Source of the DNA: an uncultured Acidobacteriota bacterium
GTDB taxonomy: Bacteria; Acidobacteriota; Vicinamibacteria; Fen-336
DNA length: 64,000 nt
Assembly: GCA_963720545.1 (NCBI GenBank)
Contig: OY970399.1
Coordinates: forward strand, 2,752,001 to 2,816,000
Direction: 5' to 3'
Shown: positions 22,101 through 28,100 of the stretch, piece after piece
Position numbering within the stretch: the stretch's first letter is position 1
Layout of the letters: every line of letters begins with the position of its first letter
Position numbers: made by a program

Positions 22101-25100
22101 ACGGCAGCGAGCTGATCCTGGTGGGCAACCACGGCCATGTCTGGGGCACGGGCGGCTTCTGGCGCATGCAAGCCGAACCGGGCGCCGCGGCGCGCGAGCT
22201 GCACTACGAGGAGACCAACTGGAAGGCGCGGCCCGACTGGTCGCCGGACGGCAAGCGCGTCGTCTATTCGTCGTATCTCGGCCGGCAATGGAACCAGCTA
22301 TGGCTGATGCCCGCTGCCGGTGGCGATGCCCTGCAGCTGACTTACGGCGAGTTCGACAACGTCGCGCCGCGCTGGTCCAAGGACGGCCGGCAGATCGCCT
22401 ACATCACCAACGAGGGCGGCAACACCGCGCTGCGCATCCTCGCCTTTCCGGGTGGCGCCGTCAGCCGGCCGCGGTTTCGCCACAAGAACTACAAGAACCC
22501 CGGCGCGCAGCTCGCCATCACCGTGACGGACGGCGCGCGCCCGGTGCCCGCGCGCATCTCGGTCACCGCAGCCGACGGCCGCGGCTACACGCCCGACGAC
22601 ACATGGCGGCATGCCGACGACGCCTACGTGCGCGGCGCGCGCGCGTTCGAGTATTCCTACTTCCACACCAGCGGCCGCGCGTCGCTGCGCGTGCCGGCCG
22701 GCTCCGAGCTGACGATCGAGGTGAGCCGCGGCCCCGAGTACGCAGTGCATACGCAGAAGCTGACGCTTGCCGCGGGCGCTTCACAGCGCCTCGCCGTGCC
22801 GCTGCGGCGCATCGACGACCTGCCGAAGAAGGGCTGGTGGAGCGGCGACGGCCACGTGCACATGAACTATGGTGGCGCCTATCGCAACGACCCGGCGCAC
22901 CTGGTGACGCAGATGCAGGCCGAAGACCTGCACCTCGTCGAGAACCTGGTGGTGAACAAGGAAGGGCGCATTCCAGACATCTCCTACTTCCGCCCCACCC
23001 CAGACCCGGCCTCGCGCCCCGGCTTCCTGCTGGCGCACGGGCAGGAGTTCCACACGAGCTTCTGGGGCCACACCGGGCTCCTCGGCCAGTCCGATCATTT
23101 CCTGCTGCCGGACTACGCGGGCTACGCCGGCACCGCAGCCGCGAGCCTCATTCCCATGAACTTCGACGTCGCCGACATGGCGCGCGCGCAAGGCGGCATC
23201 ATCGGCTACGTTCATCCATGGGACTACTATCCCGATCCCGCGAAGCGCGACGAGGCGCTCACCAACGAGCTGCCGGTGGACGCGGCGCTCGGCAAGGTGG
23301 ACTACTACGAGGTCGTCGGCTTCATCGACGACTATCTCGCGAACTCGAAGGTCTGGTACCAGCTCCTCAACTGCGGCTTCCGCATTCCCGCGGGCGCCGG
23401 CACCGACGCGATGGCGAACTACTCCTCGCTGCGCGGCCCGGTCGGCATGAACCGGGTGTTCGTGAAGGCCGGCCTGAAGCTCGAGCACGGCGCATGGCTG
23501 GCCGGGCTCAAGGCGGGCCGAACCTTCGCGACCAATGGGCCGCTGCTGTCGCTCGCCATCGACGGCAAGGAACCGGGCGCCGAGATCAAGCTACCGGCGG
23601 GCTCGCACACGCTGCACGCCGCCATGACGATGAAGTCGTACGTGCCGGTGACGAACGTCGAGCTGGTGCGAAATGGCGAAGTCATGGCCACGGCGAAGCT
23701 CGCGGCCGATGGCCGCTCGGCCAGCGGCAGCGCCGCGCTCGAGGTCAAGGAGAGCGGCTGGTACGTGCTGCGCGCCTGGAGCAAGGAGCCGCAGTATCCG
23801 GTGCTCGACGTCTACCCGTTCGCGAGCACCAGCCCCATCTACGTCACGGTGGGCGACGATCCGGTGCGCTCCGCGCGCGATGCGGCTTACTTCATCGCCT
23901 GGATCGACCGCGTCGCCGAGGCGGCGGGCAAGCACGACGGATGGGCCAGCGACGCGGAGCGCGCCACCGCGATGGAGCGGATCGCGGCGGCGCGCAAAGT
24001 CTTCACGGAGCGCGCTCAGGACTGAGCGAGCGCCGCCAGCAGGTCGTCGGCCAGGTCCTGCGGGTCCTCGATGCCGACCGAGACGCGCACCAGGTCGGGC
24101 GGCGGCGCGAGCCGGGCGCGCAGTGCTCCCGGAATGCTCGCGTGCGACATCGCGCTCGGCAGCGAGATCGACGAAGTGACCGAACCAAAGCTCACGGCAA
24201 TGGCGAAGAGGCGCACGCCCTCGACCACCCGCCGCGAACGCTCCGCGTTGCCGGTGGTGAAGCTGAACACCGAGCCGGGGCCACGCGCCTGCGACTCGTG
24301 CAGCGCCCGTGCGGCGGATGAGGCGAGTGTCGGGTAGTACACCGTGCCCACTGCCTGTTGCTCGAGGACCCGGTTGGCCAGCAGCTCCGCGGTCTGGCTC
24401 TGGCGCGCGACCCGGAGGTCGAGCGTCTTCAGCCCGCGCAACAGCAGCCAGCAGTCGAAGGGCGCGAGCCCTGTGCCCTCGGCGTTGCGCAGGAACGCAA
24501 GCCGCTCGCGCAGCGCCTCGTCGTTGGTGACCACGGCCCCCGCGCTGATGTCGCCGTGCCCGCACAACGACTTGGTCGCGGAGTAGAGCACCAGGTGGGC
24601 GCCGAGCGCCAGCGGCCGCTGCAAGCGTGGCGAGAGCAGCGAGTTGTCCACCGCCAGCAGCACGCCGCGCGTGCTCGCGAGCGATGCCAGCCCGGCGAGG
24701 TCGGCGATGCGCAACAGCGGATTGCTCGGCGTCTCGGCGACGAGGAGCCGCGTGTTCGGGCCGATCGCGGCCGCGACCGCGTCGAGATCGGTCATGTCCA
24801 CGTAGCGCACGCCAATGCCGAGGCCGGGAGCGACGCGCGCCAGGAGGCGCGTGGTGCCGCCGTAGAGGTCGTCGCCGGCGAGGATCTCGCCACCCGCAGC
24901 GACCAGGCGAGTCACGGCCGCGATCGCCGCCATGCCGCTCGTGTAGCTGAGCGCGTAGCGCGCCTTCTCGAGCGCGGCCAGCTGCTCCTCCACCTGCGTG
25001 CGCGTCGGGTTGGCGGTGCGGGTGTAGTCGTACTCGCCGAATTCCAGCGCTCCCGGCTGGCGGAAGGCCGCGGTCTGGTAGAGCGGCGGCGTCAGGGCGC

Positions 25101-28100
25101 CGTAGGGGTCGCCGTTCTTTGCAAGCGCAACACAGCGGGTGGCGAACTTCACGCGGCACCGCCTGCCGCTGCGTCCGCGGCCAGTGGCGCGGTACGGTCC
25201 GGCCCGCGGCCGACGAGAGTACGGTTGCCGGACGCGAGGGCCGCGATCTCGAATTCGAGAAAAGCCGCGCCGGCGAAGCGCACCGCCTTCGATTGCACGA
25301 CACGGGTGCCGACACGCAGCGCCGTGCCCCAGGTCGCGGTGTGATAGCGGCTCGCGGTCGCGTCGGTCGCGGGGTCGCCGCTGTACAAGCCGTCCACATC
25401 CTTGATGAGCCGGCAGCGCGCGCCGAGCGTGTGGGCGAGGAACAGCGCTGTGAGGTCGGAGCCGCCCCGGCCGAGCACGGTGGTGCGGCCGTCGCGGTCG
25501 CGCGCCACGAAGCCGGGCACGACCACCACGCCGGCAGCGAGCGCCTTGCGGATCGCTGCGGCGTTGACCGCGACCGCCTGGCCGTCGAGGAAGTCGCCTT
25601 CGCTGACGAGCCCGAGCTGCGCGGAATCGAAGAGGGTCGCCACCATGCCCGCTTCGGCCAGGGCCAGCGTGAGGAGCGCCGCGGCCGTGGCCTCCCCGGT
25701 CGCGAGAAGTGCCGCGAGCGCCTGCGGCTGCGGTGGCAGCCCGAGTTGTTGCGCGCGTTTCAGCAGGTCGTCTGTGACACCCCGGAACGCCGAAACCACT
25801 GCCAGCACCACAGCGCCGGCGACGCGCTCACGCACGATCTCCCGCACCACAGCGGGCAAGTCCCGCTCCGAGCGCAGCACCGAGCTGCCGAATTTCAGCA
25901 CCACGATGCGCGTCATGACTGGAGCGCCTGGCGCAAGTCGGCGATCACGTCCTGCGGATCCTCGAGGCCGACCGAGACGCGGATCAGGCCTTCGGTGATG
26001 CCGGTGGCTTCGCGCTGCCGCAGCGGCACGGCGCCGTGGGTCATCGACACCGGATGGGTGACGATGGTCTCGGCCGCGCCCAGGTTCTCGGCGAGCGCGC
26101 ACAGCCGCACGCCGTTCATCACCGCGATGCCGGCCGCGGCGCCGCCCTCGACCTCGAACGCCAGCACCGCGCCGCCGCTGCGCTGCTGCCGCAGGGCGAG
26201 CTCGCGCTGCGGGAACGAGTCGAGTCCGGGATAGAGGATGCGGGTCACGCGCGGGTGCGCCTCGAGGAAGCGCGCCACCTCGAGCGCGTTGGCCGCGTGC
26301 TGGCGCATGCGCAGCGGCAGCGTCTTGGCGCCCTGCAGCGTCAGCCACGCGTTCCACGGCGACTGGATGGCGCCGATGCAGTTGCGCAGCAGGAACAGCC
26401 GCTCGTGCAGCGCGGCGTCGCGCGTGAGGAGCGCCCCGCCGACGGTCGCGTTGTGGCCCTCGATGAACTTGGTGGTCGAGTGCAGCACGATGTCGGCGCC
26501 GAGGTCGAGCGGCCGCTGCAGCACCGGCGTCAACAGCGTGTTGTCGACGACCACCACGGCGCCCGCCGCGTGTCCCAGCCGCGCGGCCAGCTCGATGTCG
26601 GTGAGCTTGAGCGTCGGGTTCGCGGGCGATTCGAGGAACAACAGGGCGGCGCCGCCGCGCAGCGACCCGGCCAGCGCCGCGGGGTCGGAGGCGTCCACGA
26701 ACACGGCGTCGACGCCGAACTTCGACAGCACCTGCTGGAACAGGCGCACGGTGCCGCCGTAGGTGACGTCGCCGATGACGGCGCGCGCGCCTTTTTCGAG
26801 CAGCGCGAGCGCCAGCGCGGTGGTGGCGCCGAGGCCGGTGCCGAAGGCGGTGCAGTGCGCGGCGTTCTCGAGCGCGGCGAGGCGACGCTCGAGCGCCGCG
26901 ACCGTCGGGTTCGACTGGCGGCTGTAGGTGTAGCCCTTGTGGACCCCGACCGCCTCCTGCACGTAGGTGGTCGATTGATAGATCGGGGTCAGCAGCGCGC
27001 CGGTCACCGGATCCGGCGCGGTGCCGGCGTGCAGCGCCACGGTTTCGATGCCTGTCGCCAGGCCCTCTGTCACGGGTGCGGTTGCGGTCATTGCAGGCGT
27101 CCTTTCGGGGCGGGTCGCGCCCAAAAAACAAAAAAGCCACCGCGGGGAGATCCCCAGGCGGTGGCTTCTTGGTGTCGTTACGATCCGGGTTCTGACTAGA
27201 GCGTCTCGAACCTCGTCTCAGCGAACACGCCGCCGCCCGACGGACCGATGGGAATGCGCATCCACATGTGCATCGTGGTGGCCATCGAAACGGCGTTGGT
27301 GGTGGCGTTGCGGTTCATCTGAGGCTCCTAAGCTAACGTCCGGCTCGCGCTCGTGTCAAACCGCGCCCCGCTCCGGTGTTAACGTGCGGCCAAACCATGA
27401 GCATTGCGAAAGCCGCAACCGCACTTGCCGCCGCATTTCTTGCCACCGCCGCCGCAGCCGCCCAGCCGGGTCCGCCCACGCACTCGTCGCAGCTCGTCGC
27501 TTTGGTCGGAACCGACTATCTCGAGCACAACAAGGCGACGGACATCTCGCTGCAGATGAAGTTCGGGCTTCCGACCCTGCGATTGCCCGACGTGAGCCTC
27601 GCCGAAGAAGAGCGCGAAGCCGAATGGGCGAAGGCGCAGCTCGCCCGCCTCGAGGCGGCGAAGACAGCGGAGCTCAGCCACGGCGAGACGCTGTCGCTCG
27701 ACATCCTGCGCCGCCAGCTGCAGTTTCGCGTCGATGCGCCGCGGTTCTACTGGCTGAGCTTCGCCGTGACCCCTTACAACTCGCCGATCGGCACGGTCAA
27801 TCGTCTGTTCGAGACGCTGCCGCTGCCGGATGCCGCGGCGGCCGAGCGCTACGCCGCGCTCGTCAGGCAGCTGCCGGCTTTCTTCGATGCCCTGCGTGCC
27901 AAAGTCGAGGGCCAGGCGCAGCGCGGCATCCACCTGCCGCAGCCGGAAGTGGACGTGGTCGCCGGCTTCATGCGCTCGCTCGGCGGCAGCGGCGCCCAAA
28001 GCCCGTATGCCGTGAAGCCCGCGCGCCTCGCGTCGCTGCCGAGAGAGGCCGCCGCGCAGTTGACGAGTACGGTGGACGCGGCCGTCGCCAACGACATCAA

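Follow-up and report, generated by a model that had tools for sequence, protein, structure and literature searches.

A candidate ribosome-mediated attenuator with methionine sensing codons ahead of a metB-like operon in an uncultured acidobacterium

Known controls of methionine genes include repressors, SAM riboswitches and T-boxes. An attenuator of thrA in Pasteurellales with Met among its regulatory codons was reportedly predicted by Vitreschak et al. in 2004; it would be a mixed Thr/Ile/Met control of aspartokinase and not a dedicated methionine switch of transsulfuration genes. In the classical attenuators (trpL, hisL, thrL, leuL, pheL and ilv) a short ORF with many codons for the pathway's product is combined with helices 1:2, 2:3 and 3:4 and a U-tailed terminator ahead of a biosynthetic operon. 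This mechanism is summarised in 10.1101/834739, which describes mycobacterial polycysteine leaderless ORFs that sense Cys, with a translational output by masking of the Shine-Dalgarno (SD) sequence and no competing terminator. According to PMC3771891, the S. aureus Met T-box reads methionyl tRNA and prefers the initiator tRNA, and no conserved upstream structure was found for actinobacterial Met operons in PMC1262725. Streptomyces lividans metL, located before metNIQ, is a leaderless ORF named a methionine-dependent leader peptide (Droste et al., PMC8079986); it precedes a transporter and has two internal Met and three Cys, its authors found no typical terminator, and the accessible text gives neither an antiterminator nor a test. 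Met leader peptides have appeared in print, and in the sources available metL, at the level of annotation, is the nearest published counterpart (PMC8079986). A complete trp-type methionine attenuator was not found in the open literature; subscription surveys and supplements could list such leaders.

The DNA analysed here, a stretch of 64,000 nucleotides from an uncultured Acidobacteriota bacterium (the window), carries a Met-rich ORF followed by a terminator and a metB-like gene. Sequence comparison and folding models support the proposal of a preliminary description that this is a trp/his-type attenuator reading methionyl-tRNA, and a protector helix, a three-way covariation and riboswitch substitution in the leader's slot strengthen it; the locus is most likely a transcription attenuator in which the ribosome senses charged elongator Met-tRNA. 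It differs from the classical attenuators in its proposed signal, methionine, the codon of which also starts translation, in the alternation of its Met codons (M-x-M-x-M), in the probable lack of an SD sequence, in a segment 2 that lies well inside the ORF, at least 8 codons before the stop, and in having no match to Rfam leader families. Its likeness to metL, a leaderless ORF annotated as a methionine-dependent leader peptide, would lie in a Met leader that may itself be leaderless, and to the polycysteine attenuators in a possibly leaderless short ORF that would read a sulfur aminoacyl-tRNA, which there is that of Cys and not of Met. Met T-boxes and SAM riboswitches control the same genes, but no ribosome takes part in those systems.

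The leader ORF and its predicted start

The leader ORF (27196..27318, minus strand) encodes 40 aa, belongs to no Pfam family and contains, as previously described, four internal Met; Met is found at codons 1, 12, 16, 18 and 20, of which Met12 (27285-27283, minus strand), Met16, Met18 and Met20 (27261-27259) are the putative sensing codons. Such enrichment in codons for the pathway's own amino acid is that of a classical attenuator. At least four Met in nine codons occur in 21 of the 13,529 short ATG ORFs of the genome, and a terminator-like hairpin follows just one of the 21, the window leader itself, the background rate of such hairpins being 0.87% (1,500 sampled short ORFs). None of four other Met-rich ORFs inspected in the genome precedes a Met gene. 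In more than 80 related leaders both the in-frame Met codons and the 2:3 helix described below are retained, the latter with compensatory changes. Three alignment columns hold Met in 40/40, 40/40 and 38/40 Terriglobia leaders between variable flanking residues, and 77 leaders carry 311 ATG in frame versus 2 and 3 out of frame, a bias that is partly circular since these leaders were picked via an in-frame M-x-M. A strain variant on a low-depth contig (depth 4.5, which may hold errors) differs by I24M and H17R, by a silent substitution and by AGGGG in place of AGGAG, none of these lying inside the predicted helices.

These data make it very unlikely that the ORF is incidental to an unclassified small-molecule riboswitch or a protein-binding leader. 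Alternative helices alone would fit a riboswitch and some Met runs are palindromic in DNA, but window-type leaders lack the palindromes and no conserved unpaired core is seen, whereas the start, frame and stop of the ORF are conserved, hardly any ATG is out of frame, and in 32 listed leaders the ATG follows the -10 box at a distance of 6-7 nt.

A -35-like hexamer TTGACA (27354..27359, minus strand) and a -10-like hexamer TAGCTT (27330..27335, minus strand), 11 nt before the leader ATG, predict a transcription start at about 27323. TTGACA, a spacer of 16-18 nt and a -10-like box also precede most related leaders. In the window 11 nt separate the predicted -10 box from the ATG; many Acidobacteriaceae have 6-7 nt there and others 31-43 nt, and the ilvB leader of the same genome has a similar spacing of 12 nt. 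The motif AGGAG (27329-27325), earlier taken as the ribosome binding site, is doubtful in that role because it directly follows the -10-like box and hence probably lies upstream of the transcription start; the 11-nt spacing occurs without AGGAG at four related loci (L002, L005, L108 and L111). The window leader is probably translated without an SD sequence, and many related leaders look leaderless by sequence. A simple pattern scanner returned 0 terminators and 0 promoters at the locus, because its patterns cover neither the -10 box nor the terminator loop, which spans 14 nt and holds an inner stem.

Alternative helices and the position of the ribosome

Folding of the minus-strand RNA predicts a four-segment layout. 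Segment 1 (27280..27295), the protector 5' arm, includes Met12 and pairs with segment 2 in a 15-bp helix (1:2; -21.3 kcal/mol) that is also present in the MFE structure. Segment 2 (27225..27246, codons Gly25-Phe32) can pair with either segment 1 or segment 3, and the homologous helix is 97-99% paired in relatives. Segment 3 (27149..27175) serves as the antiterminator 3' arm, has the terminator 5' arm within it and forms with segment 2 a predicted 20-bp helix (2:3; -26.9 kcal/mol). The 3:4 hairpin and T6-G-T6 make up an intrinsic terminator (27123..27170; stem 27165-27158/27143-27136, T tract to 27123; -28.5 kcal/mol) between the leader and the metB-like gene, where one had been reported; the corresponding U-tracts of Terriglobia are weaker, being broken, with 2-8 U in 10 nt (median 6). 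The Gly-Gly codons are predicted to pair with the terminator 5' arm as proposed, within an arm that is longer than was described and runs from Gly25 to Val31/Phe32 (27246-27225), while the protector helix is an addition to the preliminary description. That description had counted it a weakness that the Met run lies four codons further from the Gly-Gly codons than in relatives; this spacing is compatible with the model because the protector helix has Met12 in one arm and encloses Met16-20.

A structure alignment of 40 of the 66 Terriglobia-type leaders revealed that the 2:3 helix, which overlaps the terminator, is 98.7% paired with two-sided changes in 3 of 10 pairs, the 5-bp protector core 96% paired with two-sided changes in 2 of 5 pairs, and the terminator 82.7% paired. 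RNAalifold recovers the 2:3 helix unaided, and after the addition of five window-type leaders it is 97.4% paired (slid controls 15-60%), which upholds the earlier claim of a conserved, covarying antiterminator; shuffle controls overstate the significance, the sequences being related. Column 44 co-changes with both of its alternative partners, columns 35 and 107, in three related sequences, which is to be counted as one event. The extended protector was not recovered as a strong consensus in the relatives (-1.9 kcal/mol).

Ribosomes can also be arrested by the nascent peptide itself, as in TnaC and plant CGS1. A leader peptide that stalls the ribosome on a metabolite such as SAM, in place of tRNA charging, would agree with the high conservation of the stretch R-M-x-M-A-M-C-T-L/P-G-G within Terriglobia and with the substitution of SAM-type riboswitches for the leader; this is nevertheless highly improbable, since the conserved stretch doubles as an RNA helix, which explains its conservation, the Met codons alone are common across groups, and their spacing from the start is variable.

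In the proposed attenuation mechanism transcription would start a few nucleotides upstream of the leader AUG, and the ribosome would load without an SD sequence. Under ample methionine it would pass the Met codons, sweep over segment 2 and reach the stop, whereupon segment 2 would refold with segment 1 and segment 3 with segment 4, and RNA polymerase would stop near 27125. Under scarce methionine a stall at Met12-Met20 would cover segment 1 and free segment 2 to capture the nascent segment 3, so that no terminator forms and the three methionine-synthesis genes are transcribed.

The window folding series gave P(2:3) of 0.8-0.9 with the ribosome at Met12 or Met16, 0.6-0.9 at Met18 (0.2-0.8 with a shorter 5' footprint) and 0 at Gly28 or the stop, where P(1:2) was 0.8; a stall at Met20 was ambiguous, as the model allows 1:2 to form around the ribosome. 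With the ribosome at the last Met, 67 of 76 distinct leaders kept hold of the terminator arm, and with the ribosome five codons further on 69 released it; the window scored only 0.26 at the last Met in this crude script. With the ribosome at the stop, folding favours the terminator in the window; in most relatives 2:3 re-forms at equilibrium (below 0.5 in only 10 of 76), so that the OFF state there would have to come from kinetics or from steric effects. In the full-length RNA of the window leader the terminator prevails whatever the state (0.99), and 2:3 can therefore act only during transcription.

The same sensor might have a wholly or partly translational output in Terriglobia, where a CU-rich stretch after the leader stop could pair with the metB SD (OFF) or with the leader GGAG (ON). 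The 40-leader alignment is consistent with this, the anti-SD being 75% paired with the SD (100% in two core C-G columns) and the leader GGAG 93% paired with the anti-SD, as are the weak U-tracts and the precedent of the polycysteine ORFs (10.1101/834739). We consider it rather unlikely, because equilibrium folding of 40 and 9 leaders showed no unmasking of the downstream SD by stalling: the SD is paired in both states, with a difference above 0.3 in 1 of 40 and 1 of 9, and the window has a strong terminator and no SD switch (0.24 vs 0.26).

Distribution of the leader and of SAM-like RNAs

For 80 genome loci of metB relatives the leader had been reported at 42 of the 45 with at least 56% identity and at 0 of 35 more distant ones. 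Its near-universal occurrence in the first set holds, at 43 of 45 on recount, the two misses being L010, with no upstream DNA, and L013, with a SAM-II-like RNA; in the second set the M-x-M filter did match 1 of 35 (L062), which was dropped by eye and has no promoter match. Metagenome loci carry the leader in 33 of 40 cases at 56% identity or more (32 by script, with L147 added by hand; at 5 of the 7 misses the upstream DNA is too short) and in 0 of 40 cases below it. Since Met leaders also occur at 7 loci of 45-47% identity and at 9 RNA-first loci of 45-53%, the 56% cut-off is no real boundary.

With a leader model built without the window, the window leader was the best match in its own genome (E 7e-5) and nothing was found near metH, the metX-like gene or hom; all 9 matches at E<1e-5 in 150 genomes lie ahead of metB-like genes, one of them in a training genome. 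Two weak own-genome matches, two in genome G342 and 9 of 10 weak matches across genomes look like chance.

As already stated for this locus, no Rfam family matches the window leader, be it a SAM riboswitch or a T-box, and none reaches the gathering score in 20 related loci; SAM-I, SAM-I/IV and SAM_alpha gave no match over the cut-off in the genome (94.8% complete). The leader's slot is occupied by SAM-II-like RNAs at L146, L191, L197 and, by alignment, L013, and by SAM-I/IV-like RNAs at L187, L188 and L003, all riboswitch matches at these seven loci being below the gathering score (E 0.007-1.8). These sub-threshold matches suggest that related bacteria have either a Met leader or a SAM-sensing RNA at the same spot. 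The tree, a quick version with 82 of 84 hand-picked rows (L070 and L165 were left out as short), gives no donor and no event order. A Leu/Val/Ile-type leader of the same layout precedes ilvB in the same genome.

The downstream operon and implications

Three genes follow on the minus strand. The first encodes a metB-like Cys/Met PLP enzyme of 392 aa (25913..27091; best NCBIfam match PRK07811, cystathionine gamma-synthase, 410 bits, cut-off 513), the second an aspartokinase-like protein of 255 aa with an AA_kinase domain only (25149..25916; domain search) and the third a metC-like cystathionine beta-lyase of 378 aa (24016..25152; best match TIGR01329, 433 bits, cut-off 487.5). The order metB-aspartokinase-metC stands as first given, while the enzyme names, resting on scores below the curated cut-offs, are to be read as "-like". 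In relatives the middle gene is mostly a kinase-homoserine dehydrogenase fusion (L005, L024 and L056).

Methionine gamma-lyase is the second NCBIfam match of the metB-like enzyme (386 bits), as would suit control of a catabolic operon, and 32 of 40 Terriglobia leaders have a Cys after the last Met, as would suit a sensor of both sulfur amino acids. Neither variant seems at all probable, because the operon of relatives also includes homoserine dehydrogenase and a beta-lyase-like gene, Cys is absent from the window leader, and the Terriglobia Cys codon also lies within the protector arm.

Beyond the attenuator itself, we tentatively entertain the possibility, short of an even chance, that dedicated methionine attenuators are widespread and have repeatedly been swapped with SAM-II-like and SAM-I/IV-like riboswitches in one gene family, and that in the leaderless Terriglobia form, whose naked RNA would fold ON, read-through follows from failed initiation for want of fMet-tRNA as well as from stalling at internal AUGs for want of Met-tRNA. 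If true, this default-ON behaviour would answer the objection usually raised against methionine attenuators and turn the leader into a two-tRNA sensor. The relative charging of initiator and elongator tRNA under Met limitation is a general argument here, on which nothing was found in the open literature.

If confirmed, methionine would join the amino acids read by ribosome attenuation, and the leader poses the testable question of how an initiation that requires Met can report a shortage of Met. Homologous operons would then show a Met-tRNA sensor and two SAM sensors exchanged for one another in nature, and a function would be assigned to more than 80 small ORFs of soil bacteria that are abundant and little studied.

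Leader, putative promoter and operon in the window

Analysis of the minus strand of the window revealed a leader ORF of 40 codons (27318-27196), of which codons 12, 16, 18 and 20 encode Met. A GC-rich hairpin with T6-G-T6 (27170-27123) follows on the 3' side of the ORF, and then come three overlapping genes. The arrangement given in the preliminary description, a Met-rich leader with four internal Met and a terminator before a met operon, was thus recovered. The best-scoring names for the three genes are cystathionine gamma-synthase, aspartate kinase and cystathionine beta-lyase. 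None of the scores reaches the curated cut-off, and judging from these names the operon reads as one for methionine synthesis via transsulfuration. The middle gene (25149-25916) carries the kinase domain only, without the homoserine dehydrogenase part, while related loci mostly have a kinase fused to homoserine dehydrogenase at this place (L005, L024, L056) or the dehydrogenase alone (L002, L063). A kinase domain and a PLP enzyme lie within one frame at L013:5159-7117 and L003:2567-4507. The closest named metB relatives are from Thermoanaerobaculia and other Acidobacteriota.

The pattern scanner returned no promoter at the leader. Pattern matching, which does not map starts, placed a -35-like TTGACA (27359-27354, minus) and, after an 18-nt spacer, a -10-like TAGCTT (27335-27330, minus) ending 11 nt before the ATG. 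The 5' end of a divergent DUF885-family gene (27376-29157, plus) lies some 20-40 nt from this -35 box. Transcription starting 6-7 nt past the -10 box would leave about 5 nt 5' of the ATG. The earlier assignment of AGGAG as RBS is doubtful, since the predicted start puts most of this motif outside the transcript and the 11-nt spacing persists in window-type relatives that have no AGGAG. By the same kind of match, the ATG is found 6-7 nt past the -10 box in many Acidobacteriaceae, which implies leaderless translation, and 31-40 nt separate the two in some Terriglobales. Leaders of the f24 family of relatives have a Shine-Dalgarno-like sequence 5' of the ATG.

Among the 21 strongly Met-rich short ORFs of the genome, that of the window is the only one followed by a terminator. 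A 37-codon Leu/Val/Ile-rich leader with a terminator before an ilvB-like gene (contig 2539302, minus, outside the window) shows the same short promoter-to-ATG layout and is probably a branched-chain attenuator. Terminator-like hairpins also follow each of two tandem Lys/Ala-rich small ORFs (contig 2127199 and 2127380, plus) and a Cys-rich small ORF (contig 746060, plus).

Alternative folds and likely mechanism

Folding of the window RNA indicated that segment 2 (27246-27225, minus) can pair with segment 1 (27295-27280, minus, containing Met12; protector, 15 bp, -21.3 kcal/mol) or with segment 3 (27175-27149, minus; antiterminator, 20 bp, -26.9), while the terminator has a folding energy of -28.5. 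When the ribosome was modelled as a masked footprint on growing transcripts, the antiterminator stood at 0.8-0.9 with the footprint over Met12 or Met16 and at 0.6-0.9 at Met18 (0.2-0.8 with a shorter 5' footprint); Met20 gave a mixture of folds, and Gly28 or the stop gave 0, with the protector restored at the stop. Naked window RNA mostly formed the protector. If no ribosome translated it, the window form would therefore be OFF, as is the trp attenuator. On the full-length RNA the terminator always won, and the antiterminator must therefore act during transcription.

A folding script applied to 76 distinct leaders showed the terminator arm to be held in 67 when the ribosome stood on the last Met and freed in 69 when it stood five codons further on. 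The window itself received a low score from this script (0.26 for the last Met). At the stop the arm was freed in only 10 and held again in most, and in naked RNA it was held in 66, so that the equilibrium default is ON in most relatives and the OFF state rests on timing or steric hindrance outside the model. Sixteen examples of window-type, f24 and f3 leaders formed a long leader hairpin when alone and the antiterminator once a ribosome was placed on the last Met.

Alignment of 40 of the 66 Terriglobia-type leaders revealed that the antiterminator was 98.7% paired (slid controls for the ON structure, 36-52%), with a U-A versus C-G exchange splitting 20 to 16, and that the short protector was 96% paired; one column covaried with both alternative partners, in three related sequences. 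The shuffle result of 0/500 overstates significance because the aligned sequences are related. Three Met columns were retained in 38-40 of the 40 leaders and the stop in 37. Internal Met codons are down to two in the leaders of L219, L220, L222, L039 and L045, while a 4-codon duplication adds one in L052; these may be natural tuning variants.

The leader is most likely an attenuator that responds to Met-tRNA and acts via termination, a reading we hold with good confidence. Nascent-peptide arrest and a small-molecule riboswitch are both unlikely, since only the Met codons, the frame and the helices are common across groups. Paired columns in the Terriglobia alignment suggest an additional translational layer in this group, but folding did not reproduce it. 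The initiation problem would have two possible answers for a Met-tRNA attenuator. Charging of elongator Met-tRNA may be lost earlier than that of the initiator tRNA, as theory has it, although this order was not found in the literature looked at; in Terriglobia the default-ON fold may serve. Three tRNA genes of the genome have a CAU anticodon. In the window, nothing but a tRNA gene with this anticodon (59573-59646, plus) reaches the Rfam gathering score.

The likeness to trpL and hisL lies in the predicted way of working, and the four structural features tested were found in the leader. The predicted thrA attenuator of Pasteurellales reportedly has Met among its inputs. No description of the present leader family was found in the open literature; for S. 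lividans metNIQ, the part of the source consulted names a methionine-dependent leader peptide, there without terminator or test (PMC8079986).

Distribution of the leader

Of the loci with at least 56% metB identity, 43 of the 45 from genomes and 33 of the 40 from metagenomes have the leader. Its supposed restriction to homologues above this cut-off was too narrow, as leaders also precede 45-53% homologues. A covariance model built from 35 leaders, the window left out, gave three matches in the window's own genome, of which the strongest was the window leader (E 7e-5), while the other two had E values of 0.3-0.4. When 150 genomes of a single order were searched, every one of the nine matches below 1e-5 (one being a training genome) preceded a metB-like gene, as did one of ten weaker matches; nine new loci from this order showed 45-53% identity to the metB-like protein of the window. 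Among 150 genomes of the phylum the model found five: that of the window, three f24 genomes whose leaders were absent from the training set, and one with apparent chance matches. In L193, L194 and L196 (f24) the metB-like protein has an N-terminal extension that contains short tandem peptide repeats. The distribution of the element is patchy. A search that scored no more than 4-6 candidates in each genome gave close homologues of metB in 5 of the 301 genomes covered from the class and in 12 of the 401 covered from the phylum. At seven f3 loci a Met leader precedes a metB that stands on a long branch of its own, which may reflect independent origin or old transfer.

SAM riboswitch-like RNAs in the same position

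In the close homologues L146, L191 and L197 a SAM-II-like RNA and a hairpin replace the leader (27.6-28.1 bits, cut-off 36), and alignment indicated a SAM-II-like RNA at L013, where the leader is absent. These RNAs (L146:234-305, L191:1231-1302, L197:1277-1348, L013:3775-3900), all below the Rfam cut-off, precede metB and are followed by a terminator-like hairpin; they are possibly a transcription-acting SAM-II variant in Acidobacteriota. SAM-I/IV-like RNAs replace the leader in L187, L188 (both of the window's own family) and L003, at 26.9-37.9 bits against a cut-off of 41.1. Such RNAs with inserted stems (L188:1325-1453, L187:2063-2199, L003:946-1122, L202, L203), mostly below cut-off, lie before metB or a metH-like gene. 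Two genomes have a Met leader before metB plus a SAM-I/IV match before a gene that we take, from its likeness, to be metH-like. A quick tree showed the SAM-like loci interspersed with the Met-leader loci. The occurrence of SAM-like RNAs in the position of the leader supports a Met- or SAM-responsive OFF switch there.
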